NCBI GenBank assembly: GCA_036003705.1
Contig: DASYSE010000102.1
Span: forward strand, 4,965 to 68,964
Direction of reading: 5' to 3'
Length of the DNA stretch: 64,000 nt
From: Actinomycetes bacterium
GTDB taxonomy: Bacteria; Actinomycetota; CALGFH01
The position numbers and the translations under genes were made by a program. This document shows positions 9,521 through 53,066 of this stretch, one piece after another (the first letter of the stretch is position 1; the number at the start of each line of letters is the position of its first letter). The notes under the pieces were generated by a model. That model was not told the origin of the DNA. It did no database searches and worked only from the letters and a program-made list of their open reading frames with translations.

Positions 9521-10943
9521 CCACGGGCCTCCGTCGGCCTGGCCGCTGCGCTGCCGGCCGGAATGGTTCGCCGGGCTGCCCGTGCTGGTCGCCGGGCTCG
9601 GCCGCTCCGGACGGTCGGCCGCCCGCCAGCTCGCCGAGGCCGGGGCCGACGTGCTCGCCTGCGACGACGCACCCGAGGTGGACGCCGGCGAGCTGGCCGC
9701 CTTCGGGGTCAAGACCTACCTCGGGCCGGGCGGCCCCGAGCTGCTCGACGGCCGCGCCCTGCTGGTCGTTGCCCCCGGCCTGCCCGAGGCCCACCCGCTC
9801 ATCAAGGCAGCGCTGGCGTCCGGGGTCCCGGTCTGGAGCGAGATCGAGCTGGCGGCAAGGGTCGCGACCATGCCGCTGGTCGGGGTCACCGGCACCAACG
9901 GCAAGACCACCACCACCGAGCTGGCCGCGGCCATGCTGACCGCGTCGGGCCTGCACGCCGTGGCCGCCGGCAACGTCGGGCTCCCCCTGATCGAGGCCGT
10001 GCTGGATCGCCACCCGCCCGAGGCGGCGGTGGTCGAGCTGTCCAGCTTCCAGCTCCGCTTCACCTGGACCCTGCACCTGCACGCCGGGGCCTGGCTCAAC
10101 TTCGCCGCCGACCACCTCGACTGGCATCCCGACCTGGCCGCCTACGAGGAGGCCAAGGCCACCATCTGGGCCAACCAGGGACCAGACGACTGGTCGCTGT
10201 ACGCCGCCGACGACCCGGTGGTCGCCGCCAACGCGCAGCGCGCCCCCGGCACCGGGGTGCCGTTCACCGTCGGGCACCCCGCCCCGGGCGGGCTCGGCCT
10301 GGAGGCCGGCGTCGCCGTGTCCCGCATCCCCGGCCACGAGGGCGGGCTGTGGCGGGCGGCCGCCCTGCGCCTCCCAGGACGCCACAACCTGGCCAACGCC
10401 ATCGCCGCCTCGGGGGTCGCCCTCGCCCTCGGCGCCCACCCGGCCGGCATGGCCAGGGCGGTGGCCGCCTTCCGGGCCGGGCCGCACCGGCTGGCACCGG
10501 TCGGCGAGGTCCGCGGGGTCGCGTTCGTGAACGACTCCAAGGCCACCAACCCGCACGCCGCCGCCCGTGCCCTGGCCGCCTTCCCGCGGGTCGTCTGGGT
10601 CGCCGGCGGTCGCAACAAGGGCCTGAGCTTCGACGAGCTGGTCGACGGCGCCCTCGACCGGCTGGTCGGGGTGGTGCTGGTCGGCGAGGCGGCCGACGAG
10701 CTGGCCGCCGCCCTCGAGCTGGCCGGCTACCCGGGGCCGGTGGTGCGGGCCGCCTCGATCGGGGAGGCGGTGACGGTCGGGTTCGGCCTGGCCGACCCGG
10801 GCGACACCGTGCTGCTCGCCCCGGCCTGCGCCAGCCACGACATGTTCTCCGGCTACGCCGAACGGGGGCTGGCGTTCGAGGCCGCCGTCGGGCGTCTCGC
10901 CGCCCGCCACGACCCGCAGGGCGGTGGCCATGGCGGCGCGTGA
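9513..10943 (+). CDS. murD: UDP-N-acetylmuramoylalanine--D-glutamate ligase MurD
   Basis: VGVTGTNGKTTTTELAAAML and Mur ligase domains, at the conserved dcw position. Confidence 0.9.
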   Translation: MASHGPPSAWPLRCRPEWFAGLPVLVAGLGRSGRSAARQLAEAGADVLACDDAPEVDAGELAAFGVKTYLGPGGPELLDGRALLVVAPGLPEAHPLIKAALASGVPVWSEIELAARVATMPLVGVTGTNGKTTTTELAAAMLTASGLHAVAAGNVGLPLIEAVLDRHPPEAAVVELSSFQLRFTWTLHLHAGAWLNFAADHLDWHPDLAAYEEAKATIWANQGPDDWSLYAADDPVVAANAQRAPGTGVPFTVGHPAPGGLGLEAGVAVSRIPGHEGGLWRAAALRLPGRHNLANAIAASGVALALGAHPAGMARAVAAFRAGPHRLAPVGEVRGVAFVNDSKATNPHAAARALAAFPRVVWVAGGRNKGLSFDELVDGALDRLVGVVLVGEAADELAAALELAGYPGPVVRAASIGEAVTVGFGLADPGDTVLLAPACASHDMFSGYAERGLAFEAAVGRLAARHDPQGGGHGGA

Positions 10944-18521: not shown

Positions 18522-19358
18522 GTGAGCCTGGTCTGGCGGCCGGCGCCGCCGACCGCGGCGCGGACCGCGCCGGTGTGGCCGCCACTGCTGGTGGCGGAAG
18601 ACCTGCTGGAGACCGGGGTCGTGGCCGCGTTCACCGGCAGGGTGGGGGGCGCCTCGGGCCCGCCCCACGCGACCCTCAACCTCGGGCTGCGAGTCGGCGA
18701 CGACCTGCGGCGGGTGCTCTCCAACCGACGGCGGGTGGCCACCGTCCTCGGCCTGGCCGGGCTCCCGTGGGCGGTCGCCAGGCAGGTCCACTCGGCGGTC
18801 GTGCTCCGCGTGGAGCAGGCCCGGCTCGGGCAGGGACCGCCGGAGGCAAGGCCGCCGGTGGGGGACGGGGACGGGCTGGTCACCACCGACCCGGGGGTGG
18901 TGCTGGCGGTGCTGACCGCCGACTGCGCCCCGGTGCTGCTGGCCGACCCGGCCGCCGGGGTCGTGGGCGCGGTCCATGCCGGCTGGCGAGGGCTGGCGGA
19001 TGGCGTGGTCGAGGCCGCGGCGGCGGCCATGGCCGAGCTCGGCGCCGACCCGGCGGCCACCGTCGGGCTGATCGGCCCGGCCGTCGGCGGCTGCTGCTAC
19101 GAGGTCGGGCCCGACGTCCGGGCCGCGGTCGGCGACCGCTACCCGGCCGCCCTGGCCACCACCAGGGCCGGCCGCCCCGCCCTCGACCCCGCCGCCGGGG
19201 TCGCCCAGGCGCTCGAGAGAGCCGGGGTCGGCCAGGTCCGGGTCGCCGGGGAGTGCACCGTCGACCTGGAGGAGCGGTACTTCTCCCACCGCCGCGACCA
19301 CGGCCACACCGGCCGCCAGGCCGGCCTGATCGCCCTGCTCCCCGGGGGCGGCCGGTGA
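18522..19358 (+). CDS. pgeF: YfiH/PgeF-family laccase-domain protein (DUF152 purine nucleoside phosphorylase / peptidoglycan editing factor)
   Basis: VVAAFTGRVGG...LNLG...LTADCAPVLL...VHAGWRG...CCYEVG...YFSHRRD motifs. The start is uncertain: GTG at 18522 gives a typical length, whereas the ORF track's start at 18417 overlaps ftsZ by 41 nt. Confidence 0.75.
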   Translation: MSLVWRPAPPTAARTAPVWPPLLVAEDLLETGVVAAFTGRVGGASGPPHATLNLGLRVGDDLRRVLSNRRRVATVLGLAGLPWAVARQVHSAVVLRVEQARLGQGPPEARPPVGDGDGLVTTDPGVVLAVLTADCAPVLLADPAAGVVGAVHAGWRGLADGVVEAAAAAMAELGADPAATVGLIGPAVGGCCYEVGPDVRAAVGDRYPAALATTRAGRPALDPAAGVAQALERAGVGQVRVAGECTVDLEERYFSHRRDHGHTGRQAGLIALLPGGGR

Positions 19359-19414
19359 ACCGGGGCCCGGACACGGCCGGCCTGATCGCCCTGCTCCCCG
19401 GAGGCGGCCGGTGA
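19318..19414 (+). repeat. ~40-bp direct duplication (2 copies separated by 16 bp) spanning the yfiH stop / ylmE start junction
   Basis: GGCCGGCCTGATCGCCCTGCTCCCCGG(G/A)GGCGGCCGGTGA occurs at 19318-19358 and again at 19375-19414. Copy 1 supplies the yfiH stop and copy 2 supplies the ylmE GTG start. Confidence 0.8.
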
Positions 19415-21195: not shown

Positions 21196-22128
21196 ATGCC
21201 GCCACTGACGCCGCTGGACATCCAACACAAAGAATTCACCAAGGCCATGCGCGGGTACGCCATGCACGAGGTGGACACCTTCCTCGATCAGGTCACCGAG
21301 GAGTTCACTCGGATGCAGGACGAGATCGCCCGCCTCCGGGAGCAGGCTTCCAGCACGACGCCGTCGCAGCCCGCCCCGGTGCAGGTGCAGCAGGCCCCGC
21401 CGCCTCCGCCCCCGCAGCCGGTGGCCGCCGAGCCGCGCAGTGCCGGTGGCGAGGAGGCGATCGCCCGGGCCCTGGTCATGGCCCAGCGGATGGCCGACCA
21501 GACGGTCGAGGAGGCCAAGGTCAAGGCCAAGTCGATGGTCGCCGAGGCCGAGGCGCGCGCCAAGAACATGACCGAGCAGGCGCAGATGCGCGCCCGCGAG
21601 GTCACCGAGGCCGCCCAGATGCGCGCCCGCGAGGTCACCGAGGCCGCTCAGATGCGCGCCCGCGAGGTCACCGAGGCCGCCCAGGCCAGGGCCCGCGAGC
21701 TCACCGAGGGCCTGGAGACCCGCTACAAGGAGCGGATCCAGTCGGCCGAGGCCCGCGCCCGCGTTGCCGAGGAGCAGGCCCGCATGCAGATCGCCCAGGC
21801 GACCGAGCAGGTGGCCAGGCGCCGTCAGGAGCTCGAGAGCTCCATCGAGGCACTGCGTGCGTTCGAGCGCGACTACCGCGCCCGGCTCCGCGGCTTCGTC
21901 GAGGGCCAGCTCAAGGCGCTCGAGGACGCGGCCCCGTCCGGGCCGGTCGCCCCACCGCAGCCGCCAGGCCTCGGCGGGAACTCGCGGCCCCTGCCCGGCG
22001 CCGACGACCTGCCGGCCCTGTCGACCGGGGCGCGCCAGAGCTCCTACTCGGCCCTGCGCGACTCGACCTCCGACCAGCTCGGCCACAACGGTCGCGACCG
22101 CGTCGACCGGCTGCGTCACGACGACTGA
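21196..22128 (+). CDS. divIVA: DivIVA/Wag31-family coiled-coil cell-pole/septum protein
   Basis: MPPLTPLDIQHKEFTKAMRGYAMHEVDTFLDQV is the lipid-binding DivIVA N-domain. It is followed by long coiled-coil regions. Confidence 0.9.
   Translation: MPPLTPLDIQHKEFTKAMRGYAMHEVDTFLDQVTEEFTRMQDEIARLREQASSTTPSQPAPVQVQQAPPPPPPQPVAAEPRSAGGEEAIARALVMAQRMADQTVEEAKVKAKSMVAEAEARAKNMTEQAQMRAREVTEAAQMRAREVTEAAQMRAREVTEAAQARARELTEGLETRYKERIQSAEARARVAEEQARMQIAQATEQVARRRQELESSIEALRAFERDYRARLRGFVEGQLKALEDAAPSGPVAPPQPPGLGGNSRPLPGADDLPALSTGARQSSYSALRDSTSDQLGHNGRDRVDRLRHDD
21580..21711 (+). repeat. 33-bp in-frame tandem repeat (3 near-perfect copies plus 1 degenerate) inside divIVA, encoding AQMRAREVTEA x3
   Basis: gcgcagatgcgcgcccgcgaggtcaccgaggcc repeated head-to-tail. 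Confidence 0.8.
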
Positions 22129-26127: not shown

Positions 26128-26485
26128 CTGCTGATCGTCTCCTTCGCGCGACGTTGCCCTGGCGAAGGGACGAGGCCATGAGCCCCGCGGTACCACCCCT
26201 CGTGCCGGCAGCCTCGCGACCACCGACCGCTCGCCGGCCACCGGGTTGCAGTGGTCCGTCAGCTGTCACGGGCTGACCCGGCTGCGTCTACTGGGCGGTG
26301 GCCCGCCGTTCGGGCAGCGGCTCGGGGAGGATGTTCGAGAGGCGCCGTGCCACCGGGCTTCCACCATCCCCGGCTCGCTGGCGGCCGTGCCGCCCCCTAC
26401 TCGTTCCCGTCATCGCCTGTACCCCGAGTCTACCTCGCCCCCGCAATCGGTTTGGCTATGATGCCAATGCAGCTGCCGCCTTCCG
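26128..26485 (-). promoter_or_regulatory. T-box riboswitch leader of ileS (Ile specifier), with an ultrashort Stem I and an SD-sequestering expression platform
   Basis: The reverse-strand RNA contains the T-box motif GGGUGGUACCGCGG (complement of 26185-26198). Upstream is a hairpin UUGGC-AUCAUA-GCCAA whose loop carries AUC (Ile codon) followed by a purine (complement of ~26449-26469). The segment CUCGUCCCUUCGCC can pair with CGAAGGAGACG, which covers the ileS SD. Confidence 0.75.
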
Positions 26486-26557
26486 TGCGCCGGACTTGTG
26501 AGGGTGGCCGCCCAGGTACCGCCATCCTCGCCGGCTGGGCCGTTGTCGGAGGACGCC

Positions 26558-26995
26558 ATGGCACGCAAGAAGACCGCTGGGACCGGGGCCGAGCCGGCGC
26601 CGCGCCGGCGCGGCCACCGCTCGCTGGTCACCAAACGAGACCTCGCTTCCTACCGCAGACGGCTGGAGGCCGAGCTGGCCGAGCTGAACGGCCAGCGGGC
26701 CGACCTGGAGGAGTCGACCGGCGCGAGCATGGCCGACGCCACCGGCGAGGTCGGCTTCGACGAGGAGTACGCCGACGCCGGCAGCTTCACCTTCGAACGC
26801 GAGCGCGACCTGTCGCTGGTCGACAACGTCAAGGACCTGATCGACAAGGTCGAGCGCGCGCTGACCCGGATCGGCGACGGCAGCTACGGCCGCTGCGAGG
26901 CCTGCGGCGACGCCATCGAGGCCGAACGGCTGGACGCCCTGCCCTACACCACCCTGTGCCTGGCCGACGCCCGCCGGCGGGTCCGCCCGCGGTGA
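26558..26995 (+). CDS. DksA/TraR-family zinc-finger protein (C4-type, here CxxC-x17-C-x2-D)
   Basis: Coiled-coil N-region plus CEACGDAIEAERLDALPYTTLCLAD. Divergent from ileS. The same position is occupied by a DksA-like gene in Streptomyces-type gene order. Confidence 0.7.
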   Translation: MARKKTAGTGAEPAPRRRGHRSLVTKRDLASYRRRLEAELAELNGQRADLEESTGASMADATGEVGFDEEYADAGSFTFERERDLSLVDNVKDLIDKVERALTRIGDGSYGRCEACGDAIEAERLDALPYTTLCLADARRRVRPR

Positions 26996-32273: not shown

Positions 32274-32915
32274 TCAGTTGAGGCTGAAGGGCGTGGTCAT
32301 GGGGGCCGGGCCGGCGACCCGCAGGTGCTCGAGCAGGACGAGCTCGCGGCGGAGGAGGGTCGCCTCGGCGGCCAGCCGCTCGGCGGCCGACGGGATCGTC
32401 AGCAGCCGCTGCTTGTCGGCCAGGTCGACCTGGAGGCCGGCGGCGACCAGGTACGAGGCGGCGACCGGGTCGTCCGGGATGTCGATGGACTCGACCTGCT
32501 CGCCGGCCATGCGCATCAGGGCGGCGACGTAGCGGGTGAACAGCCGGCCGGCCTTGAGGGTGCGTTGCTCGGCCGCCTCCCCGGTCGTCTCGGGCAGGGT
32601 TCGCACCTCGGCGACGATGTACGGGGCGGCCTGCACGACCCCGTCGATCTCGAACCGGTCCTGGCCGCGGGCGACGACGTCGAGGCGGCCGTCGGCGTGG
32701 CGCTGGACCTTGCCGACCTCGGCGACGCAGCCGACCGGGTGGTAGGTGGCGGTGGTGTCGACCTCGACGCCCCTGACGATCGCGACCACCCCGAAGCGTC
32801 GCTCGCCGTCCAGGATCCGCGCGAACATCTCGCGGTAGCGGTCCTCGAACACGTGCAACGGGATCGGCAGGCCCGGGTAGAGCACGGTCTGCAAGGGGAA
32901 CAGCGGCAGCTCCAC
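32274..32915 (-). CDS. Stand-alone LON N-terminal (substrate-binding) domain protein
   Basis: ELPLFPLQTVLYPGLPIPLHVFEDRYREMF is characteristic of the Lon N-domain. GTG start with GACGAGG RBS. Confidence 0.7.
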   Translation of the reverse strand: MELPLFPLQTVLYPGLPIPLHVFEDRYREMFARILDGERRFGVVAIVRGVEVDTTATYHPVGCVAEVGKVQRHADGRLDVVARGQDRFEIDGVVQAAPYIVAEVRTLPETTGEAAEQRTLKAGRLFTRYVAALMRMAGEQVESIDIPDDPVAASYLVAAGLQVDLADKQRLLTIPSAAERLAAEATLLRRELVLLEHLRVAGPAPMTTPFSLN

Positions 32916-32958: not shown

Positions 32959-33102
32959 CAGGCGTCCCGGCTCGCGTCCGTGCGGCCGCCGCGCGGGAGG
33001 TGCCGCGGATCACCCGCCTGGGGGTGCGGACCGCCGGGCTCGCGTCCGTGCGGCCGCCGCGTGGGAGGGGCCGCGGATCAGCCGCCTGGGGGTGCTGACC
33101 GC
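32959..33102 (+). repeat. 68-bp tandem repeat (~2.1 copies, ~93% identical) in the divergent intergenic region between the Lon-N gene and hisD
   Basis: GGCTCGCGTCCGTGCGGCCGCCGCG(C/T)GGGAGG(T/G)GCCGCGGATCA(C/G)CCGCCTGGGGGTGC(G/T)GACCGCC occurs at 32959-33026 and 33027-33094, with a partial third start at 33095. Confidence 0.75.
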
Positions 33103-33250
33103 CCGGCTCGCCGGACGGCACGGTGCGCAGGCGTCATCCCAGCAGCTTCGCCGTGGCGGTGGGCGCGCCGGTCGCCGGCCGCCAGGGGGCTGCGGTAGGG
33201 TGAATCCCGACCCCGACGTCCGTCCTCTGCTGTCCATGGAGTGAGTTGCC

Positions 33251-34564
33251 GTGCTGCCCGTCGTCGACCTGCGAGGCTCGGACCGCGACCCGGCGGAGCT
33301 GCTGCCGCGCGCCCCGGCGGGCGCCGTGGAGGCGGCCGTGGCCGGCGTCCGGGAGCTGGTCGCCGCCGTCGCCGCCCGCGGTGACGCCGCCGTCGCCGAG
33401 GCGGCCAGCCGCTTCGACGGGGTCGACGCCCCCCCGGTCGCCTGGCGGGCGACCCCCGAGGAGCTGTCCGCCGCCAAGCGCGCCCTCCACCCGGCCCTGC
33501 GCGCCGCCCTGCTCGACGCGGCCGAGCGGGCCCGCGCCTTCCACCAGGCGCAACGCCCGGCCGACCTGACCTGGTCGGACCGGCCAGGGGTCCGCCTGGT
33601 CCAGCGGTTCGTGCCCCTGCGCCGGGCCGGCGTGTACGCGCCTGGCGGCCTCGCCGCCTACCCGTCCAGCGTGGTCATGAACGTCGTCCCCGCGCAGGCG
33701 GCCGGGGTCGAGCAGGTCGCCCTGGCCACCCCGCCCGGTCGTGGCGGCCGCGGCCACCCGGCCATCCTCGGGGCCGCGGCCCTGCTCGGCGTCGGCGAGG
33801 TGTGGCTGCTGGGCGGAGCCCAGGCGGTGGCCGCGCTGGCCTGCGGCACCGAGACGGTCCCGGCGGTCGACTCGGTGACCGGGCCGGGCAGGCTCCACGT
33901 GGCGCTGGCCAAGCGGGAGGTGGCCGGCCGCGTCCGAACCGACGGCTTCGCCGGCCCGACCGAGGTCGCGGTGCTCGCCGACGCCACCGCCGACCCGCTG
34001 CTGGTCGCGGTCGACCTGGTCGCCCAGGCCGAGCACGACCCGCTCGCCGCCTGCCTGCTGGTCACCGACGACGCCGACCTGTGGAAGGCGGTGGAGCCGC
34101 TGCTCGCCGGGGAGGTGGCGGCGACCACCCACCGCGACCGGGTCGAGGCCGCCTTCGCCGGCCAGTCGGCGGTGGTGCTCTGCGACGACCGGGCGGCCAT
34201 GCTCCGGGTGGCCGAAGCATTCGCCCCCGAGCACCTGGAGCTGCTGGTCAGCGAGCCCGGTGAGCTGGCCATCCGGGTCCGCAATGCCGGGGCGGTGTTC
34301 GTGGGGCCGTGGACGCCGGTCGCCCTCGGCGACTACGCGGCCGGGACCAACCACGTGCTCCCGACCGCCGGGACGGCCCGGTTCGCCTCCGGGCTGTCGA
34401 CCTTCGACTTCCTCCGCACGGTCCAGGTGGCCGAGTTCGACCGGGAGGCGCTGGCCGCGGCCGCGCCGACCGTCTCCGCGCTCAGCCGGGCCGAGGGCCT
34501 GCCCGCCCACGGCCGCGCCGTCGCCGCCCGGCTCCCACGGGATGCGGCGGGGGAGGGCGCGTGA
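33251..34564 (+). CDS. hisD: Histidinol dehydrogenase
   Basis: HisD motifs (YAPGGLAAYPSSVVMNVVPAQAAGV, GPTEVAV, QAEHDP). GTG start with GGAG RBS. Confidence 0.9.
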   Translation: MLPVVDLRGSDRDPAELLPRAPAGAVEAAVAGVRELVAAVAARGDAAVAEAASRFDGVDAPPVAWRATPEELSAAKRALHPALRAALLDAAERARAFHQAQRPADLTWSDRPGVRLVQRFVPLRRAGVYAPGGLAAYPSSVVMNVVPAQAAGVEQVALATPPGRGGRGHPAILGAAALLGVGEVWLLGGAQAVAALACGTETVPAVDSVTGPGRLHVALAKREVAGRVRTDGFAGPTEVAVLADATADPLLVAVDLVAQAEHDPLAACLLVTDDADLWKAVEPLLAGEVAATTHRDRVEAAFAGQSAVVLCDDRAAMLRVAEAFAPEHLELLVSEPGELAIRVRNAGAVFVGPWTPVALGDYAAGTNHVLPTAGTARFASGLSTFDFLRTVQVAEFDREALAAAAPTVSALSRAEGLPAHGRAVAARLPRDAAGEGA

Positions 34565-43811: not shown

Positions 43812-45358
43812 CCGCCGCGCCTGGCGGCGTCCTGCCGGGGATCGAGGAGTTCGTGCGCCTGGCAGGGGAGCACTCGGTGGTGCCGGTCTGGCGGGAGCTG
43901 CTCGGCGACCTGGAGACGCCGGTTGGGGCGTTCCGCAAGCTCGGCGACCAGGACGGCTCGGTGCTGCTGGAGAGCGTCGAGCACGGCGAGCGCTGGGGCC
44001 GGTACTCGTTCATCGGCACCGACCCGTTCGCCACCCTGACCATCAGCGGCGGGCGGGCGTCGTGGACCGGCCGCCCCCCGGCCGGCCTGTCCGACGGGCC
44101 GCCGCTGGCGGTGCTCCGCGAGGCGCTGCGCCGGCTGCGCTCGCCGTCCCTGCCCGGGCTGCCGCCGCTGTTCGCCGGCGCCGTCGGCTACCTCGGCTAC
44201 GACCTGGTCCGCGAGCTGGAGCGCCTGCCCGACCAGACCGAGGACGATCTCCGGTTGCCCGACGGGGTGCTGGTCTTCCCCCGCTCGGTGGTCGTCTTCG
44301 ACCACCTCGGGCAGCGCCTGGTGCTGGTGGCCAACGTGGTCGTCAACCAGGCGACCGACCTGGACGCCGCCTTTGCCGACGCCTGCAGGCGCCTGGACGC
44401 CCTGGCCGCGCGGTTGTCGGTGCCGGTGGGGACGGTGCCGACCCCCCTGCCGGCGGCCGGCCCGCCGGCGGCCGCCTCCAGCGACCTGGCGCCGGGCCGC
44501 TACCAGGAGATGGTTCGGATCGCCAAGGAGCACATCCGGGCCGGCGACATCTTCCAGGTGGTCCCGTCGCAGCGGTTCTCGGTGCCGACCACCGCCGACC
44601 CGTTCGACGTCTACCGGGTCCTGCGGGTGGTCAACCCCTCCCCGTACATGTACTTCCTGCGCCTGCCGGGCGTGACCATCGCCGGCTCGTCGCCGGAGGT
44701 GCTGGTCACCGTCCAGGGTCGCCGGGCCACCATGCGGCCGATCGCCGGCACCCGGCCGCGTGGCGTCGACCAGGAGGCCGACCTGGCGCTGGAGGCCGAG
44801 CTCCAGGCCGACCAGAAGGAGCGGGCCGAGCACGTCATGCTGGTCGACCTGGCCCGCAACGACCTCGGCCGGGTCTGCCGGCCGGGCACCGTCAAGGTCG
44901 ACGACTTCATGCGGGTCGAGCGCTACTCCCACGTCATGCACCTGGTCTCCGACGTGACCGGGGAGCTGGCCGACGGGGTGGCGGCGTTCGACGTGCTGGC
45001 GGCCTGCTTCCCGGCGGGCACGGTGTCCGGGGCTCCCAAGGTCCGGGCGATGGAGATCATCGACGACCTGGAGCGCCACCGCCGCGGGCCCTACGCCGGC
45101 TGCGTCGGCTACTTCGACTTCTCCGGCAACCTCGACACCTGCATCACCATCCGGACGTTCGTGTTCGTGGACGGCGTCGCCTACTGCCAGGCCGGCGCCG
45201 GGGTGGTGGCCGACTCGGTTCCCGAGCGCGAGGAGCGCGAGACCGAAGCCAAGGCCGGCGCCCTGCTGGCCGCCGTCGCCGCCGCCCAGGCCCTCTCCGA
45301 CGCTCCATCGGCCCCCCGCGACGGCCATCGGCCGGCCGCCGCCCATGCCGGTGGCTGA
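43808..45358 (+). CDS. trpE: Anthranilate synthase component I
   Basis: Chorismate-binding enzyme motifs ([52 protein letters not shown]). The GTG overlaps the hisI stop. Confidence 0.9.
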
Positions 45359-46118
45359 CAACGGCCCCGCCGGCAGGGCGGACGGTCCAGCACCGGCCGG
45401 TCGGGGGGCCCCCCTGCGCGGCTCGGCTGGCAGGGCGGACGGTCCAGCACCGGCCGGTCGGGGGGCTCCCCCGCGCGGCTCGGCCGGCAGGGCGGACGGT
45501 CCAGCACCGGCCGGTCGGGGGGCTCCTCTGGGCGGCCCGGCGCCGCCGGCCCCCGAGCGGCGGTCGCTGCAGCTGGCCCTCGTGGCGGCGGTGGTCGGGG
45601 TGGGGCTGGCCGTGACCGGGGCAGGCCGGCCGTGGGCGACGGTCAGCGCCAACGTCGAGCTGCCCGGGCTCGGCTCGGCCCGGCTCGGCGCCGCCGAGGT
45701 CACCGGCAACGACCTGCTGCCCCTCGGCGGGCTCGCCCTGCTCGGGCTGGTGCTGCTGGTCGGGGTGGCCGTGACCAGGGGGCACGGCCGCTGGGCGGTG
45801 GGGCTGGCCCTGCTCGCCCTGGGCGGCGCCCTGGCCGTTGGAGCCGTGGTGGGCGGGAACCGGGTCGGCGCCGAGGCCGCCGAACGGGCCGAGCTCGGGC
45901 TGCTGGAGGGGGTGCCCGGCGGGACCGGCGTCCAGGTCGCCACCCCGAGGGCCGGCCCGGTCCTGGTCGTGGCCGGCGGCCTGCTGCTGGCCCTGGCCGG
46001 CCTGGAGGCGCTCCGGCGCGGGCCGCGCTGGCCGGCGCTCGGCGACGCCTTCCGGGCTCCGCCCGACCGCGTCCAGCCGGTCGCCGACCCCGGCGAGCCG
46101 CCCTGGGAAGGTGACTGA
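45345..46118 (+). CDS. Trp-cluster-associated polytopic membrane protein (TrpX-like, Rv1610-type), with a repetitive Pro/Gly/Ala-rich N-terminus
   Basis: Four hydrophobic helices. The position between trpE and trpC matches the conserved actinobacterial 'Trp region membrane protein'. It overlaps the trpE end by 14 nt. Confidence 0.5.
   Translation: MPVADNGPAGRADGPAPAGRGAPLRGSAGRADGPAPAGRGAPPRGSAGRADGPAPAGRGAPLGGPAPPAPERRSLQLALVAAVVGVGLAVTGAGRPWATVSANVELPGLGSARLGAAEVTGNDLLPLGGLALLGLVLLVGVAVTRGHGRWAVGLALLALGGALAVGAVVGGNRVGAEAAERAELGLLEGVPGGTGVQVATPRAGPVLVVAGGLLLALAGLEALRRGPRWPALGDAFRAPPDRVQPVADPGEPPWEGD
45372..45542 (+). repeat. 57-bp in-frame tandem repeat x3, encoding GRADGPAPAGRGAP(L/P)RGSA, within the trpX-like N-terminus
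   Basis: ggcagggcggacggtccagcaccggccggtcggggggc(c/t)cccctgcgcggctcggc(t/c) repeated three times. Confidence 0.8.
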
Positions 46119-46211
46119 CCAGGGACCTTACCGCCCTCGAACGAGGCGACCAGCGTCCCCGAACCTGCTCGGGCGATGCTACGGTCGGCCCAACGGCGGA
46201 AAGGGGACTGG

Positions 46212-46979
46212 TTGACGCCCGAGCACCCCTCCAAGGGGACCGTGCTGCTGGTCGAGGACGAGGAGTCCATCGCCGACCTGGTCCGGCTGTACCTGGAGCG
46301 CGATGGCTTCCAGGTGGTGTGGCGCACCGACGGCCCGTCCGGCCTGGCCGCGGTCGACGCCGAGCGTCCCCGGCTGGTGCTGCTGGACCTGATGCTGCCC
46401 GGCATGGACGGGTTCGAGGTGACCAGGGCGCTGCGCGAGCGGGGCGGCCGGGTGCCGATCATCGTGGTGACGGCCAGGGAGGAGGAGGCCGACCGGGTGC
46501 TCGGCCTCGAGCTCGGCGCCGACGACTACGTGACCAAGCCGTTCTCGCCCCGCGAGCTGGTGGCCCGCGTCAAGGCGGTGCTGCGCCGCGCCGAGCCCGA
46601 GCCGAGGGCCGGTCTGGAGCCGCCGCTGCACCTCGGCAGCCTCACCGTCGACCCGGCCCGCCACGAGGTCGTGTTCGAGGGCCGCCCGGTGCAGCTCACC
46701 GCCCGCGAGTTCGAGCTGCTCTGCTACCTGGTCCGCAACCGGGGCCTGGTCCTGACCCGGGACCAGATCCTCGAGCGCGTCTGGGGCTACTCGTTCCCGG
46801 CCGACACCCGGACCGTCGACGTCCACATCCGCCAGCTTCGCGCCAAGCTGGGTGAGCGCGCCCCCATCGCCACCATCCGCGGCGTCGGCTACAAGGCAGA
46901 GGACCGCGGGAGCGTCCCAGGCGCCCAAGGGGGGCCATCCATGGGGCCCGGCCCCCGGCCCGGGTCGGAGCAGGGCTGA
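46212..46979 (+). CDS. OmpR/PhoB-family two-component response regulator
   Basis: Receiver domain (LLVEDEE...DGFQVV...LVLLDLMLPGMDG...GADDYVTKPF) plus a winged-helix DNA-binding domain (LTAREFELLCYLVRNRGLVLTRDQILERVWGY...RTVDVHIRQLRAKL). Probable TTG start at 46212 after an AAAGGGGA RBS. The track's ATG at 46176 is an alternative. Confidence 0.85.
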   Translation: MTPEHPSKGTVLLVEDEESIADLVRLYLERDGFQVVWRTDGPSGLAAVDAERPRLVLLDLMLPGMDGFEVTRALRERGGRVPIIVVTAREEEADRVLGLELGADDYVTKPFSPRELVARVKAVLRRAEPEPRAGLEPPLHLGSLTVDPARHEVVFEGRPVQLTAREFELLCYLVRNRGLVLTRDQILERVWGYSFPADTRTVDVHIRQLRAKLGERAPIATIRGVGYKAEDRGSVPGAQGGPSMGPGPRPGSEQG

Positions 46980-48481
46980 TGGGGCGGGGCGGGGGGTCGT
47001 TGCGGGGACGGCTGGTGCTGGCGTTCGTGGCCGTCGCCGTCCTGGCCGCCGTGCTGATCGGGGTCATCACCCTGTCCCTGGTCCGCCTGGTGCCCGAGCG
47101 CGGCCTGGAGCGGCAGCTCGCCGACCAGGCGGTGGCCGTCACCGAGGCGGCCAACGGCCCGCCCCCTGCCCGAGGGGTGTGCGCGTTCGTCCGCGCCCTC
47201 CGGGTCGGCGACACCGAGGCGTACAGACTGGGCCGCAACGACCGGACGACCACGCCGCTCGCGGTCGCCTGCCAGCCACCCGGCCGCCGGCGCGGGATCC
47301 CCCTGGCCCCGGTCCCCGACATCGACCTGGCCGCCACCCTGGCCCGAGGCGAGGTCGTCAGCGGCACCAGCGACGGGCTGGCCTGGGCGGTCGCCCCGGC
47401 CGAGCGGGCCGTCCGCGGCGGCCGCGGCGGCGTGCTGCTGGTCCACGAGGTCCGCCGCCTCGGCGTCAGCCTGTTCCCGGTCGTCGCCTGGCGGCTGCTG
47501 CTGGCGACCGCCCTGGCCGTCGTGGTGGCGGCGCTGGTCGCCTGGCTGCTGGCCGGCCGGCTCACCGCGCCGCTCGGCCGGCTGGTCGCGGCCGCCCGCC
47601 GTGTCGGCGGCGGTGACCTGTCGACAAGGGTGCAAGTCGACGGCGACGACGAGGCTGCCGAGGTGGCCTCGGCCTTCAACGACATGGCCGCCGGCCTGGA
47701 GCGCGCCCAGGGCGAGCAGCGCGCGTTCCTGGCCAGCGTTGGCCACGAGCTCAAGACCCCCCTCACCACCATCCAGGGCTACACCGAGGCGCTGCTGGAC
47801 GGCACCGTCGAGGACCCGGCCGAGCGCCGCCGCTCGCTGGTCCGGGTCCACGCCGAGACCGTCCGCCTGGCCCGCCTCATCCAGGACCTGCTCGACCTGG
47901 CCCGCCTCGGCCGCGGCCAGTTCGCCGTCAGCACCGTCGACGCCGATGTCGGCGCCGTGCTGCGGGAGGCGGTGGCGGCGGCCACCGAACGGGCATCCCG
48001 GCGCGAGGTCACCGTCACCACCCGCCTCGCCCGCGTCCTCCACGCCCACGTGGACCCTGGCCGGCTCCGCCAGGTGCTGGACAACCTGCTCGACAACGCC
48101 ACCCGCTCCAGCCCCCCCGGCCGCCAGGTGCTGGTCGCGGCCAGGCCGCTGGACGGTGGCGGGGTTGAGGCGGCCGTGGTCGACCAGGGCCCCGGCATCT
48201 CGGCCGAGGACCTGCCCCACGCCTTCGACCGCGGCCATCTGTGGTCCCGCTACCGAGGCACCCGCGAGGTCGGTTCCGGTCTCGGCCTGGCGATCGTCAA
48301 AGCCCTCTGCGACGCCATGGGCGTCGCCATCCGCGCCGAGTCCGGGAACGGCGGCGGCACCGCCTTCCGCCTCATCCTCCCCCCGGCCCGCACCGCGCCG
48401 CCCAGCGGCGGCCCACCGATCGGCCCGACCACCCCGACCGAGCTTCCCACCCGCCCGCTGCCCCGAGCCCGCGGCCGATGA
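46979..48481 (+). CDS. Sensor histidine kinase (HAMP-HisKA-HATPase), partner of the upstream regulator
   Basis: Two TM segments, HAMP, H-box SVGHELKTPLTTIQGY, N-box LDNLLDNATRSS, and G-boxes DQGPGI / GSGLGLAIV. The ATG overlaps the regulator stop. Confidence 0.85.
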   Translation: MGRGGGSLRGRLVLAFVAVAVLAAVLIGVITLSLVRLVPERGLERQLADQAVAVTEAANGPPPARGVCAFVRALRVGDTEAYRLGRNDRTTTPLAVACQPPGRRRGIPLAPVPDIDLAATLARGEVVSGTSDGLAWAVAPAERAVRGGRGGVLLVHEVRRLGVSLFPVVAWRLLLATALAVVVAALVAWLLAGRLTAPLGRLVAAARRVGGGDLSTRVQVDGDDEAAEVASAFNDMAAGLERAQGEQRAFLASVGHELKTPLTTIQGYTEALLDGTVEDPAERRRSLVRVHAETVRLARLIQDLLDLARLGRGQFAVSTVDADVGAVLREAVAAATERASRREVTVTTRLARVLHAHVDPGRLRQVLDNLLDNATRSSPPGRQVLVAARPLDGGGVEAAVVDQGPGISAEDLPHAFDRGHLWSRYRGTREVGSGLGLAIVKALCDAMGVAIRAESGNGGGTAFRLILPPARTAPPSGGPPIGPTTPTELPTRPLPRARGR

Positions 48482-48547
48482 GGGACGAGCGTTGCTGAGG
48501 GGCGCTGGCTGCGAGCAGGCGGATCGGACGGACTAGAATCATCGCCT

Positions 48548-49411
48548 GTGACCTCGACCGGTTCCTTCCTTGCCCGGGCGGTGGCCGACGCCAGGTCGGA
48601 CGCCGAGCGCCGGGCGGCACGCCTGCCCCCTGCCGCGGTGCGGGCTGCCGCGGCGACCGCCCCGACCGCACGGGGGCTGCGGGCCGCTGTCGGTCGCGGG
48701 CCGGAGGGGCCCCGAGTGATCGCCGAGGTCAAACGCCGTTCGCCATCCAAGGGCGACATCCGCATCGACCTCGACCCGGCCGCCCTGGCCGCCGCCTACG
48801 CCGCCGGCGGCGCCTGCGCGATCAGCGTCCTGACCGAGCCGCGCCATTTCGCCGGCAGCCCCGCCGACCTGCTGGCGGCGCGGGCCGCGGTCGAGCTGCC
48901 GGTGCTCCGCAAGGACTTCGTCACCACCCCCTACCAGGTGTGGGAGGCGCGCGCCTGGGGCGCCGACGCGGTCCTGCTGATCGTGGCCGCGCTCCGGCCC
49001 GCCGAGCTCCGCGCCCTGCTCGACGAGACCGCCGAGGCGGGCCTGGACGCGCTGGTCGAGGTCCACACGGTGGCCGAGGCGGAGGCGGCCGCCTCCGCCG
49101 GCGCCAACCTGGTCGGGGTGAACGCCCGCGACCTGGCCACCCTCCAGGTCGACCCCGGCCGCTTCGCCGACGTCCGCCAGGCCCTGCCCGGCGGGACGAT
49201 CCTGGTCGCCGAGAGCGGCATCCGCGACCGCGCCGACGTGCAGGCGGCCGGCGACGCCGGCGCCGACGCCGTCCTGGTCGGCGAGGCCCTGGTCCGCGCC
49301 GACGATCCGACGAAGGCCGTCCGCGAGCTTCTTGCGTCGTCGGATCGTCGGGATGCGATGGACCGGCAGGGCGCAAGCGCTGCCACCGAGCCCGTTCCTG
49401 CTGAGCAATAG
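48548..49411 (+). CDS. trpC: Indole-3-glycerol phosphate synthase
   Basis: [52 protein letters not shown]. Confidence 0.85.
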
Positions 49412-49419
49412 GAGGACAG

Positions 49420-50727
49420 ATGGCCGCGCCCCGCAAGATCCTGCTCGGTGAGGACGAGCTGCCGACCGCCTGGTTCAACATCGTGCCCTCGATGCCGACC
49501 AAGCCCGATCCCTACCTGCACCCGCAGACCCGCGAGCCGGTCGGGCCGGACGCGCTGGCGCCGCTGTTCCCCATGGCCCTGATCGGCCAGGAGGTCTCCA
49601 CCGACCAGTGGGTCGACATCCCCGGTCCGGTGCTCGACACCTACAAGCTGTGGCGGCCGACCCCGCTGGTCCGCGCGCTCGACCTCGAGCGCGCGCTGGG
49701 CACCCCGGCCCGCATCTACTACAAATACGAGGGCGGGTCGCCGGCCGGCTCCCACAAGCCCAACACCGCCGTCGCGCAGGCGTTCTACAACAAGGCCGAG
49801 GGTATCGCCCGGCTCAGCACCGAGACCGGGGCCGGCCAGTGGGGCAGCGCCCTGGCGTTCGCCTGCGCCCGGTTCGGCCTGGAGTGCAAGGTCTACATGG
49901 TGCGGGCCTCCTACGACGGCAAGCCCTACCGGCGCTCGCTCATGGAGACCTGGGGGGCCAGCGTCATCCCGTCGCCGTCGCCGGAGACCAACGCCGGCCG
50001 GGCCGTCCTCGGCCAGCACCCCGACTCGCCCGGGTCGCTCGGCATCGCCATCTCCGAGGCGGTCGAGGACGCCGCCCTGCGCGAGGACACCCACTACGCG
50101 CTCGGCAGCGTGCTCAACCACGTGCTGCTCCACCAGACCGTCATCGGCCTCGAGCTGAAGGCGCAGCTCGAGCAGGCCGGCGTCGAGCCCGACGTGCTGG
50201 TGGCCTGCGTCGGCGGCGGGTCCAACTTCGGCGGCTTCACCTTCCCGCTGCTGGCCGAGAAGCTGGCCGGCCGCAGGAGCACCAGGGTCGTCGCGGTCGA
50301 ACCGACCGCGGCCCCGACCCTCACCGAGGGCCGGTTCGAGTACGACCTCGGCGACCAGGCCGGCATGACCCCGCTGCTGCCCATGTACACGCTGGGGGCC
50401 GACTTCATCCCAGCCCCGATCCACGCCGGCGGGCTGCGCTACCACGGCGACTCGCCGCTGGTGTCGCTGCTGCGCAAGGAGGACCACATCGAGGCCGTCG
50501 CCTACCCGCAGTCCAAGGTCTTCGAGGCGGCCGTGCAGTTCGCCCGCACCGAGGGCATCCTGCCGGCCCCCGAGCCGGCGCACGCGATCCGGGCCGTGAT
50601 CGACGAGGCCCTGCGCTGCAAGGAGGAGGGTCGCGAGGAGACCATCGTGTTCAACCTCTGCGGCCACGGCCACTTCGACCTCAAGGCCTACGAGGATTAC
50701 CTGTCCGGGAACCTCCTGGATGTCTGA
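49420..50727 (+). CDS. trpB2: TrpB2-type tryptophan synthase beta-like PLP enzyme (TrpB paralog)
   Basis: Long N-terminus [17 protein letters not shown]..., [29 protein letters not shown] (PLP lysine), [14 protein letters not shown]. Perfect AGGAGGA RBS. Its stop overlaps the next gene's ATG. Confidence 0.8.
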
Positions 50728-52066
50728 CCACGGCCCAGCCGGCATGGGGCACGGTCCGTCGGCGGCCGCCGGGCTGCAGGCCGACGACGGCCCAGCCGGC
50801 TTGGGGCACGCTCCGTCACCGGCCGCCGGGGTGGGCACGGCGGAGGTATTGCACCGGCCGGACCCGCTCGGGCACTTCGGCGCCTGGGGCGGGCGTTTCG
50901 TCCCAGAGGTGCTGATGGCCGCCCTCGACCAGCTCACCGACGCCTTCGAAGAGGCCATCGCCGACCCGGAGTTCGTGGCCGAGCTGGAGGCGTTGCGGCG
51001 CGACTACGCCGGCCGGCCGACCCCGCTGTTCCCGGCCAGGCGGCTGTCGCGGGAGCTGGGACTGCGGCTGTGGCTCAAGCGCGAGGACCTGCTCCACACC
51101 GGCGCCCACAAGCTCAACAACTCCCTCGGCCAGCACCTGCTCACCCGCAGGATGGGCAAGCCGCGGGTGATCGCCGAGACCGGTGCCGGCCAGCACGGCG
51201 TCGCCACCGCCACCGCGGCCGCCCTGCTCGGTCAGGAGTGCGTCGTCTACATGGGCGAGGAGGACACCCGACGCCAGCACCTCAACGTCGTGCGCATGCG
51301 GCTGCTCGGCACCGAGGTGCGGACGGTGGCCACCGGCACCGCGACCCTCAAGGACGCCATCAACGAGGCCCTGCGGGACTGGGTCGAGTCGGTCGGGTCG
51401 ACCCACTACGCCATCGGCTCGGTCGTCGGCCCCCACCCGTTCCCCCTCATGGTCAGGGAGTTCCAGCGGGTGATCGGGGACGAGGCCCGCGGCCAGATCC
51501 TGGCCGCCGAGGGGCGGCTGCCCGACCTGGCCGTGGCCTGCGTCGGCGGCGGGTCGAACGCGGCCGGGCTGTTCGCCGCCTTCATCGACGACGAGCCGGT
51601 TCGCCTGGTCGGGGTCGAGGCCGGCGGCCGCGGGCCCCAGCCGGGCCACCATGGGGCCTCGCTCGGCCTCGGCGAGGCCGGCGTGCTCCACGGCGCCCGC
51701 TCCTACCTGCTCCAGGACGCCGACGGCCAGGTCCTGCCCACCCACTCTGTCTCGGCCGGTCTCGACTACCCGGGGGTCGGCCCGGAGCACGCCTTCTGGA
51801 AGGACGCCGGTCGGGTCTGCTACGAGCGCGCCCTCGACACCCTCGCCCTCGACGGGTTCCGCCTCCTCGCCCGCACCGAGGGCCTGCTTCCCGCCCTCGA
51901 GCCGGCCCACGCGGTCGGCTGGCTCGCTCAGGCCGCCCGCGACGGCCGGGTCGCCCCCGGCTCCCTGGTCGTCCTCAACCTCTCCGGCCGCGGCGACAAG
52001 GACGTCGAGACCGTCTCCGCCCTGCTGGCCGACCCCGACCCTCCACCCGACCCTGCCGATGCCTGA
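50720..52066 (+). CDS. trpB: Tryptophan synthase beta chain (canonical TrpB1), with a repetitive ~40-aa N-terminal extension
   Basis: [38 protein letters not shown] (PLP lysine), [23 protein letters not shown]. The ATG at 50720 overlaps the trpB2 stop. Confidence 0.9.
50726..50839 (+). repeat. 57-bp in-frame tandem repeat x2 ([19 protein letters not shown] / [19 protein letters not shown]) at the trpB N-terminus
   Basis: gaccacggcccagccggcatggggcacggtccgtcggcggccgccgggctgcaggcc followed by a ~75% identical second copy. Confidence 0.75.
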
Positions 52067-52256
52067 CCCCGGACCGCCTGCACCCGCCCCCGGAGCCCCC
52101 GGCGGTCCGGCCGGGTTGGTCGACCAGGGCCCCCCATCCCCCGGTTCCGACCCCGGTGCCGTTGGTGACCCTGCCGGCTCGATGGCGGCGGCCTCCACAT
52201 CCCTGGGATCCCCCGGTTCCGCGGCGGCGGGGACCCGGCTGGGCGTGGCGGCCAGC

Positions 52257-53066
52257 ATGCCGGCGCCGCTGGAGCGGCTGGAGGGGCGGCTGGACCAGCT
52301 GCGGCGGGACGGGACGGCGGCCCTGATCGCCTACGGGGTCGCCGGGTACCCGGACCTGGACGGGTCGCTGGCGGCCTTCCGGGCGATGGCCCAAGCGGGC
52401 GCCGACGTGCTCGAGGTCGGCCCGCCCTACTCCGACCCGCTGATCGACGGGCCGGTCATCCAGCGGGCGGTCACCGCGGCGCTCGACGCCGGGACCCGCC
52501 TGGACGACGTCCTCGGCCTGGTCGACGAGCTGACCGCCAGCGTGGATGCGCCCGTGGTGCTGCTCGTCTACTACAACCTGGTGGCCCACCGCGGCCCCAG
52601 GCGGTTCGCGGCCGAGCTGGCCGCCGCCGGGGCCTGCGGCGCGGTCGTGCCCGACCTGCCGCCCGAGGAGGCGGGGGAGTGGCTGGACGCGGCCCGGGTG
52701 GCCGGGGTCGCCCCGGTGTTCCTGGCCGCCCCGACCTCCAGCGACGCCCGCCTGGCCGCGGTCGCCCGCTCCGGCCGGGGCTTCGTCTACGCCCAGGCGT
52801 CGCTGGGCGTGACCGGCCTGCGGGCCTCGCTGGCCGCCGGCATCGAGGACCTGGTCGGCCGGGTCCGCGCCCACACCGACCTCCCCGTCTGCGCCGGCAT
52901 CGGCGTCTCCACCGCCGAGCAGGCCGCCGAGGTGGCCAGGTTCGCCGACGGCGCCATCGTCGGCACCGCCCTGGTCCGCCGCCTCGGCGACGGCGGCCTC
53001 GACGGCCTGCGGACCCTCACCGCCGAGCTCGCCGACGCCGTCCACACCGCCCGCAGCCGTCGGTGA
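52257..53066 (+). CDS. trpA: Tryptophan synthase alpha chain
   Basis: ALIAYGVAGYPD, LEVGPPYSDPLIDGPVIQ, VLLVYYN, GAVVPDLPPEE, GFVYAQASLGVTG. The start is uncertain, with in-frame ATGs at 52182 and 52257. The track's 51651 start is a frame fusion over trpB. Confidence 0.85.
   Translation: MPAPLERLEGRLDQLRRDGTAALIAYGVAGYPDLDGSLAAFRAMAQAGADVLEVGPPYSDPLIDGPVIQRAVTAALDAGTRLDDVLGLVDELTASVDAPVVLLVYYNLVAHRGPRRFAAELAAAGACGAVVPDLPPEEAGEWLDAARVAGVAPVFLAAPTSSDARLAAVARSGRGFVYAQASLGVTGLRASLAAGIEDLVGRVRAHTDLPVCAGIGVSTAEQAAEVARFADGAIVGTALVRRLGDGGLDGLRTLTAELADAVHTARSRR

Follow-up and report, generated by a model that had tools for sequence, protein, structure and literature searches.

Directly downstream of trpE in the tryptophan (trp) operon of an uncultured Actinomycetes bacterium, on a stretch of contig DASYSE010000102.1 (the whole 64 kb analyzed here, hereafter the window; 73.6% G+C), a gene for a PF09534-type membrane protein opens with three head-to-tail copies of a 57-bp unit. 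We consider it likely that this array is a coding minisatellite, or variable-number tandem repeat (VNTR), derived from a junction element shared with the trpB gene of the same operon, and that, most likely translated, it lengthens a disordered N-terminal tail. The nearest known kinds of element are coding VNTRs and, by position and behavior, the VNTRs formed by mycobacterial interspersed repetitive units (MIRUs).

Two 57-bp arrays and the junction element they share

An in-frame, threefold 57-bp repeat had been noticed at the start of this gene in an earlier reading of the sequence (the original prediction). It was borne out by Tandem Repeats Finder, which reports an array at 45362-45541 (period 57, 3.2 copies, and 91% matches) with a score of 304, the highest in the window. 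The three units lie just past the start codon, in the frame set by the ATG at 45345, and their translations are GRADGPAPAGRGAP(L/P)RGSA, GRADGPAPAGRGAPPRGSA, and GRADGPAPAGRGAPLGGPA. In register from 45372, their pairwise identities are 54/57, 52/57, and 52/57. Each unit consists of 19 codons, with 3 Arg and 1 Asp, and is devoid of in-frame start or stop codons; the array is read through. To judge from its sequence, unit 3 is probably the original copy (Table 1). Identity at a lag of 57 nt averages 20.2 ± 4.1 per 57 in the window and reaches at least 40/57 at only two places in the 64 kb, this array and a second one at the start of trpB, which stand 6-8 standard deviations above the mean.

The trpB array, also correctly predicted, consists of two 57-bp units (50726-50839) that are 46/57 (81%) identical and in the frame of the ATG at 50720; it is older than the PF09534 array. 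The original prediction had pointed to a core common to both families, with the proviso that it might reflect nothing but Gly/Pro/Ala-rich, GC-biased sequence. A first test within the window, in which single units were scored against 57-nt windows, was no more than suggestive, since 12-19 of the 6,664 windows did as well, and was superseded by a comparison with relatives. These relatives, referred to as L-numbered loci, all come from metagenome contigs or assemblies. The N terminus of their TrpB reads MS(D/S)DGPAGRADGPAAAGG, starting MSDDGPAGRADGPAAAAG or MSSDGPAGRADGPAAAGG with the motif present once, which is nearly the start of the PF09534 protein in the window. The resemblance extends to the DNA: the trpB start of L007 (TGACGACGGCCCAGCCGGCAGGGCGGACGGTCCGGCGGC) is identical to window positions 45356-45394 at 34 of 39 nucleotides, the rare codons AGG and GGT included. 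A profile built from the relatives' trpB starts alone matches the PF09534 start of the window (E = 1.2e-7). Reciprocally, a profile built from their PF09534 starts, with the window excluded, matches its trpB start (E = 4.3e-6), as well as the trpB starts of L007, L010, and L012. Finally, a 26-nt pattern of the element, with up to 3 mismatches allowed, occurs at four sites, all within the two arrays, compared to 0.00 expected.

On the strength of these alignments and profiles, the two 57-bp families are homologous, and their likeness is not an effect of Gly/Pro/Ala composition. Given the reciprocal profile matches and the 34/39 DNA identity, both arrays are therefore amplifications of one junction element of ~40 nt. 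As read from the sequence, this element starts at the upstream stop codon, which is the TGA of trpE at the PF09534 junction and the TGA or TAG of trpB2 at the trpB junction, and encodes the N-terminal motif [DN]GPAG[RK]xDGPA. nhmmer finds it at the two trp junctions and at one partial site in the 64 kb, and only at trp junctions in the ~156 kb scanned from relatives. Its 5' half recurs as an exact 18-nt copy (GACAACGGCCCAGCCGGC) at 26530-26547 on the minus strand (E = 2.9e-5 in nhmmer with a model of the PF09534 junction only; pattern expected 0.01 times per window), where the copy forms codons 5-10 of a 49-codon open reading frame (ORF; MASSDNGPAGEDGG..., 26559..26410, minus strand). The start of this ORF stands back-to-back with the ATG of a dksA-like gene, and its end meets the onset of a T-box leader (RF00230) that precedes ileS (26422-26163; subthreshold, 49 bits, E = 1e-9).

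At least four arrays are built on the junction element: that of the window type, that of L001, which represents a sister lineage (96.1% DNA identity to the window), that of trpB in the window, and that of trpB in L010. The last, in metagenome-assembled genome (MAG) CMU.bins.340, is a near-perfect 2x60-bp repeat and a separate duplication. The L001 array has 3x57 bp with another unit boundary, and every one of its units holds the trpE stop/start overlap CCGGTGGCTGAC (GTGGCTGA). In other lineages, the tails of PF09534, TrpB, and TrpA proteins contain tandem duplications that have nothing to do with this element, which makes these tails general duplication hot spots. We also noticed an array with a 57-bp period (1.9 copies and 77% matches) inside trpC of a related MAG (L016 459-568 and L017 404-513).

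Copy number, translation, and the proposed origin of the array

The number of units differs between very close relatives. L022 (JGI sample 3300082035) shares 99.40% identity with the window in an alignment of 2,326 nt whose sole gap is exactly 57 nt, leaving two units, while L002 has three units of the window type. In the sister cluster (>90% amino acid identity), products of 219 (n = 5), 238, 257 (n = 5), and 276 residues correspond to one, two, three, and four units, respectively. The slippage-type length polymorphism proposed in the original prediction is thus seen as two versus three units at 99.4% identity and as one to four units in the sister lineage. All the alleles seen, with one to four units, are open and in frame, 57 being 3x19. 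Whole-unit changes keep the frame and therefore produce length polymorphism rather than phase variation; the suggestion that the locus might be phase-variable falls away, as no on/off switching follows. The window and L002 differ at seven places within the first 700 nt of the ORF, five of which are third codon positions, as would suit a translated tail. All seven are inside the array and at positions that differ between units, which fits exchange between units.

The protein that carries the repeat matches Pfam PF09534 (Trp_oprn_chp, Trp-associated membrane protein) above the gathering score (60.6 bits for a cutoff of 29.6, residues 80-244). Against NCBIfam TIGR02234 it scores 29.2 bits, which is under the curated cutoff of 71.15, with position 1 of the profile at residue 72. 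An AlphaFold model of the 257-residue product (mean predicted local distance difference test [pLDDT] of 75.8) has helices at residues 70-94, 127-143, 149-183, and 203-228, and the protein is thus modeled with several membrane-spanning helices. Residues 1-66 show no secondary structure in this model, with pLDDT values of 44-53, and are predicted to be disordered. With a charge of ~+2 from the 3 Arg and 1 Asp of every unit, the positive-inside rule suggests that the tail is cytoplasmic.

Judging from the sequence, the repeat is most likely translated, with initiation at an ATG or GTG overlapping the trpE stop. The ATG is 11 nt ahead of that stop, and the overlap (GTGGCTGA) is also present in relatives. 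Read from a start that overlaps the upstream stop, the protein core is in frame at all 11 trpB loci, which cover 6-7 tail lengths, and in five of six independent PF09534 tail-length classes. No further in-frame ATG, GTG, or TTG follows 45351 in the window before the sequence encoding RRSLQLAL, a motif of the form RRS(L/M)Q in which R72, R73, S74, and Q76 are nearly invariant among 41 homologs. The ATG itself comes from a synonymous change in trpE (CAC to CAT); the relatives have ACG there and must use the GTG two codons downstream.

Several observations weigh against a coding VNTR. The product annotated by NCBI (HEV8425570.1, 178 residues) starts at the GTG at 45582, which corresponds to V80, and this leaves the repeat intergenic and noncoding. 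The G+C content at third codon positions (GC3) is 0.76 in the PF09534 tail versus 0.96 in the gene core, which is unusual for a translated stretch of this genome. Arrays of this size (171 bp here, 114-228 bp among the alleles) may be shortened or lengthened in short-read assembly, and some of the copy-number differences could be artefactual. The same 57-bp period is shared by the two PF09534-start duplications, whose boundaries differ and whose lineages are only ~4% apart, and by the trpB array. Lastly, we know of no function for the PF09534 family or for the tail.

The V80 start is doubtful because RRSLQLAL, position 1 of TIGR02234, and the first helix all begin upstream of it: starting there costs 11 positions of the profile and 10 residues of the helix at 70-94. 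Lying inside the first predicted helix, it is probably miscalled. The low GC3 could mean that the tail is young or that its nucleotides are under constraint. An assembly artefact is made less likely by the gap of exactly one unit in L022 and by several independent contigs with one and three units. The shared period is explained only partly by microhomology spacing and short tails.

We propose the following origin for the array. A 57-bp segment at the 5' end of the PF09534 gene, which would be the 3' part of the ~40-nt junction element, was duplicated in tandem to three copies. The likely cause would be slipped-strand mispairing, or else unequal recombination, at two short, imperfect direct repeats flanking the unit at a 57-nt spacing, CGGCCCCGCC before unit 1 and CGGCCCGGCG ending the last unit. 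A homologous copy of the element at the 5' end of trpB, in a clade of uncultured Actinomycetes, would have undergone a duplication of its own (2x57 bp in the window and 2x60 bp in the other MAG). Each unit would add 19 residues with a net charge of ~+2 to the disordered tail, ahead of the first membrane helix, and a change by whole units would give another tail length in the same expression state. Copy number would then have little or no selective effect. Coding VNTRs offer a close parallel, since their head-to-tail units, too, exceed 10 bp, have lengths divisible by three, preserve the ORF, vary in number by whole units between near-identical strains, and lie in a low-complexity region predicted to be disordered. 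They differ in that the unit here stems from a gene-junction element common to two genes of one operon, each copy of which was amplified separately.

Alternative readings of the array

The strongest alternative concerns the RNA. The trpE/PF09534 junction is predicted to fold into a hairpin (45334-45387; Table 1) whose stem takes in the PF09534 start codon and whose loop is close to the trpE stop. The minimum free energy is -43.5 kcal/mol versus -27.1 ± 3.0 for shuffled sequences (z = -5.3; none of 300 shuffles equally stable), and the bases of the start codon are paired with a probability of 0.99 in the predicted ensemble. In such a reading, CGGCCCCGCCGGCAGGGCGGACGG would be a 3' arm that masks the PF09534 start until ribosomes translating trpE open the hairpin, and the units, as further copies of that arm, might tune the coupling. 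We give this reading tentative weight, well short of an even chance. The same topology is predicted as the most stable in six of seven element-bearing junctions, among them L001, L018, L019, and L021, and the inner stem of 11 bp is invariant, although it overlaps trpE coding sequence and the stop/start signals. Low GC3 and conserved rare codons would fit a constraint at the nucleotide level, and the RNA-unfolding model of translational coupling is itself established (PMC12548453).

Other results limit this alternative. Outside the window type, z ranges from -0.9 to -2.2 (-1.1 to -2.2 in L001, L018, L019, and L021). Covariation in the seven sequences is weak: 84% of cells are paired, as opposed to 30-57% when the partners are slid, no more than two pairs differ on both sides, and 45 of 500 shuffles reach the score. 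The element at the trpB junction shows no significant structure (z from -0.8 to +2.1), and we therefore discarded a coupling hairpin there. As for a role of copy number in tuning, the repeat copies could pair with the 5' arm nearly as well as copy 1 (-40.2 and -42.4 versus -44.4 kcal/mol), but the proximal arm is the one used in predictions for alleles of one to four units, with the start staying 99% paired. Since the proximal copy always wins, copy number has no predicted effect on start masking, which is identical for one, two, three, and four units, and we rejected it as a tuner.

Searches for other signals gave nothing. A gapless inverted-repeat search does not recover this bulged hairpin, an Rfam scan of the window finds no family in the trp region, and a promoter and terminator scan of 44800-51200 shows nothing relevant, with no promoter-like site nearby. 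The predicted hairpin fits RNA-unfolding coupling of trpE and PF09534, resembling MS2 coat-lysis, phage f1 genes VII-IX, and rpmI-rplT in that the upstream ORF contains the 5' arm, the stem contains the start, the loop is near the upstream stop, and the predicted stability is high. It differs from them in being a prediction with weak covariation, in a 3' arm that is coding and triplicated, and in a trpB paralog of the element without a hairpin. Masking of the start is compatible with a coding VNTR, and the two are not mutually exclusive.

Alternatively, the array could be a noncoding, intercistronic VNTR of the mycobacterial MIRU kind, between trpE and a PF09534 gene starting at the GTG at 45582, which we regard as unlikely. 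Besides the 178-residue NCBI product and the low GC3 of the tail, it would account for an element that begins at the upstream stop, for the duplication of the GTGGCTGA overlap in the sister-lineage units, and for a similar junction duplication between yfiH and ylmE in the same window. For MIRUs, insertion at start codons together with translational coupling has been described (PMC12548453). What speaks against a noncoding array is that the V80 start drops RRSLQ along with the profile and helix positions listed above, that the frame is preserved across tail-length classes, that the units in the window, unlike MIRU ORFs, have no in-frame start or stop, and that, in the 64 kb and the ~156 kb of relatives' loci, the element was seen only at the two trp junctions and one partial site. 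The parallel with MIRU-VNTRs is thus one of position and behavior. Both are actinobacterial tandem repeats of ~50-80 bp at an overlapping stop/start operon junction, in a single orientation and with variable copy number, and the stop/start overlap is copied within each unit of the sister lineage (L001). The differences are that our element was seen only at the sites just named and that the units of the window are read through as the N terminus of the downstream protein.

A broader scheme would have a junction cassette spread between coupled gene starts (PF09534, trpB, and possibly the small ORF before the ileS T-box) and then be amplified in a MIRU-like manner, supplying both a start-masking arm and a shared N-terminal peptide, with copy number modulating the output of trp genes; we find this scheme improbable. 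The direct repeats might instead be operator or iteron sites for a regulator of amino-acid genes, e.g., the MtrA-like response regulator encoded downstream, with putative sites at the starts of PF09534 and trpB and upstream of ileS. The presence of the core at the two trp junctions, and the exact 18-nt copy upstream of the ileS T-box where 0.01 was expected, would suit binding sites. Against them stand the absence of promoter-like sites, the location of the elements inside coding sequence, conservation that follows the codon frame, and the lack of any known binding motif; moreover, the dinucleotide-shuffle null understates how frequent GC-rich codon strings are. Binding sites of this kind seem very unlikely to us.

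We give hardly any credence to a phase-variable contingency locus in which copy number would switch PF09534 (or trpB) on and off. Copy number does differ between close relatives, but every allele of one to four units is open, there is no promoter-like site, masking is independent of copy number, and the unit has 57 bp, compared to the 1-9 bp of contingency loci. An assembly artefact or a chance low-complexity similarity, conceivable for a metagenome-assembled source rich in Gly/Pro/Ala codons, can practically be dismissed, because L002 and L022, assembled independently from other samples, carry this array too, lag-57 identity is 6-8 standard deviations up, and the reciprocal profile matches are significant.

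The trp operon, other repeats, and significance

Table 1. Features of the trp region in the window (positions count from its first nucleotide)
Feature	Position	Strand	Basis or remark
Predicted RNA hairpin	45334..45387	+	5' arm, last trpE codons and PF09534 start codon; 3' arm, junction element
PF09534 gene (Trp_oprn_chp; TIGR02234-like membrane protein)	45345..46118	+	257-residue ORF from ATG overlapping trpE stop
trpE stop codon TGA	45356..45358	+	Within PF09534 start region (ATG 45345, alternative GTG 45351); sequence and ORF list
Junction element copy 1 (TGACAACGGCCCCGCCGGCAGGGCGGACGGTCCAGCACC)	45356..45394	+	Homologous to trpB 5' element
PF09534 57-bp unit 1 (GRADGPAPAGRGAPLRGSA)	45372..45428	+	Tandem Repeats Finder and translation
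PF09534 57-bp unit 2 (GRADGPAPAGRGAPPRGSA)	45429..45485	+	Tandem Repeats Finder and translation
PF09534 57-bp unit 3 (GRADGPAPAGRGAPLGGPA)	45486..45542	+	Most divergent; resembles single-copy alleles of sister lineage
RRSLQLAL motif	45558..45581	+	Onset of first membrane helix; 5' of NCBI start
TrpB-like pyridoxal phosphate enzyme gene (NF009057)	49420..50727	+	Stop overlaps trpB start
trpB	50720..52066	+	ATG overlaps stop of TrpB-like gene (ATGTCTGA); 50-residue tail before TIGR00263 core
trpB 57-bp unit 1	50726..50782	+	Lag-57 identity and translation
trpB 57-bp unit 2	50783..50839	+	Lag-57 identity and translation

The genes are ordered trpE-PF09534-response regulator-histidine kinase-trpC-trpB2-trpB-trpA, an order shared by L007 and L014, where PF09534 likewise adjoins trpE in the trp operon. 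TrpB of the window is identical to HEV8425575.1, from a MAG labeled "Actinomycetes bacterium." We take Rv1610 of Mycobacterium tuberculosis to belong to the PF09534/TIGR02234 family, an equivalence based on position and not on sequence. The operon order in that species is trpE-Rv1610-trpC-trpB-trpA (PMC5573416), and the gene studied here resembles members of the family in its Pfam match, in its place directly after trpE, which is the Rv1610 position, and in its several predicted helices. It departs from them in a TIGR02234 score under the cutoff, in the two-component pair and the TrpB-like gene inserted in the operon, and in a long, repeat-bearing tail that lacks the GPPNREGSPTPEG motif. The original prediction had called the protein TrpX-like, a name that does not fit: trpX, now trpM (SCO2038), is a small ORF (<100 residues) of the Streptomyces trpCXBA locus, between trpC and trpB (PMC5036795), as opposed to a 257-residue PF09534-type membrane protein directly after trpE.

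Several other observations were made in the operon. An MtrA-like response regulator and a histidine kinase with HAMP and HisKA domains are encoded at 46176-48481, between the PF09534 gene and trpC, and a two-component pair is found at the same place of the trp operon in L007, L014, L020, and L022. Most close homologs of the PF09534 protein (e.g., L007 4366-4430, L003, and L004) conserve a tail motif, GPPNREGSPTPEG...HTP, that is missing from the window protein. This motif is written with the rare codons AAT, GGT, and CCA and contains an embedded GGGAGGG; it could be either a peptide motif or a ribosome-binding signal. When L002 776-930 is compared to window positions 46070-46218, the gene core is identical, while the 3' end and the following spacer are swapped for another version (DRARPQPTGDGEPPWQGD, as in P0033), which suggests, at the sequence level, a recombination breakpoint. 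An ATG overlapping the trpB stop (ATGCCTGA; 52059-52259) would add a 67-residue Pro/Gly/Ala-rich tail to trpA before its Pfam core. The trpA products of relatives have 270-322 residues, and the trpA tail of L012 has a 24-bp repeat (3.3 copies, 9853-9932).

Of the other repeats named in the original prediction, those of 33, 40, and 68 bp all exist, but the 33-bp repeat is not N-terminal and the copies of the "40-bp" repeat are not adjacent. The first is a 33-bp array of 3.8 copies (21583-21709), in frame in the middle of DivIVA (residues 130-171 of 310). The second consists of two 40-nt copies, 98% identical and 56 nt apart (19319-19414), which duplicate the 3' end of a yfiH-type gene (PF02578) and a GGTGA stop/start overlap. 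The start codon of the ylmE-type gene (PF01168) is now the GTG in copy two, which makes this a second junction duplication in the window. The third, a 68-bp array of 2.1 copies with 92% matches (32966-33111), is intergenic, between a divergent gene for a LON substrate-binding domain (32274-32915, minus strand) and hisD (33251-34564). N-terminal arrays are therefore limited to PF09534 and trpB, instead of the three that had been counted, and the density of repeats in the window, described as unusual, is typical of the clade: with a period of at least 10 and a score of at least 90, there are four arrays per 64 kb here, as against ~6 per 64 kb across the 156 kb of loci from relatives, a set that is trp-biased and partly redundant.

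We also looked for further relatives of the array. When GTDB genomes were scanned with the PF09534 protein as the seed, there was no relative among the matches listed, which low-complexity peptide patterns probably dominate. A metagenome scan yielded four loci, none of which has the repeat (0/4). A DNA pattern scan of GTDB genomes recovered one true relative, L010; matches in Streptomyces and Pseudarthrobacter fall inside long ORFs and look like chance. A profile of the doubled 20-residue N-terminal motif had no match in 5.8 billion proteins. An exhaustive phmmer search of 1.84 billion representatives with the 79-residue tail gave a single match, P0303, an unrelated protein with a 19-residue-period repeat that we judged to be a periodic low-complexity match.

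The current understanding of tryptophan biosynthesis is unchanged by these findings, which matter in other respects. The NCBI start probably removes the conserved onset of the first helix and hides a translated repeat, and the N-terminal tails encoded in trp operons of this clade merit re-examination. The two 57-bp arrays could serve to mark strains of an uncultured lineage of soil Actinomycetes. If the start-masking hairpin is functional, trpE-PF09534 would be a clean natural test case for RNA-unfolding coupling in high-GC bacteria. The locus also shows how the sequence of an overlapping stop/start junction can pass from one gene of an operon to another and then undergo repeated amplification.

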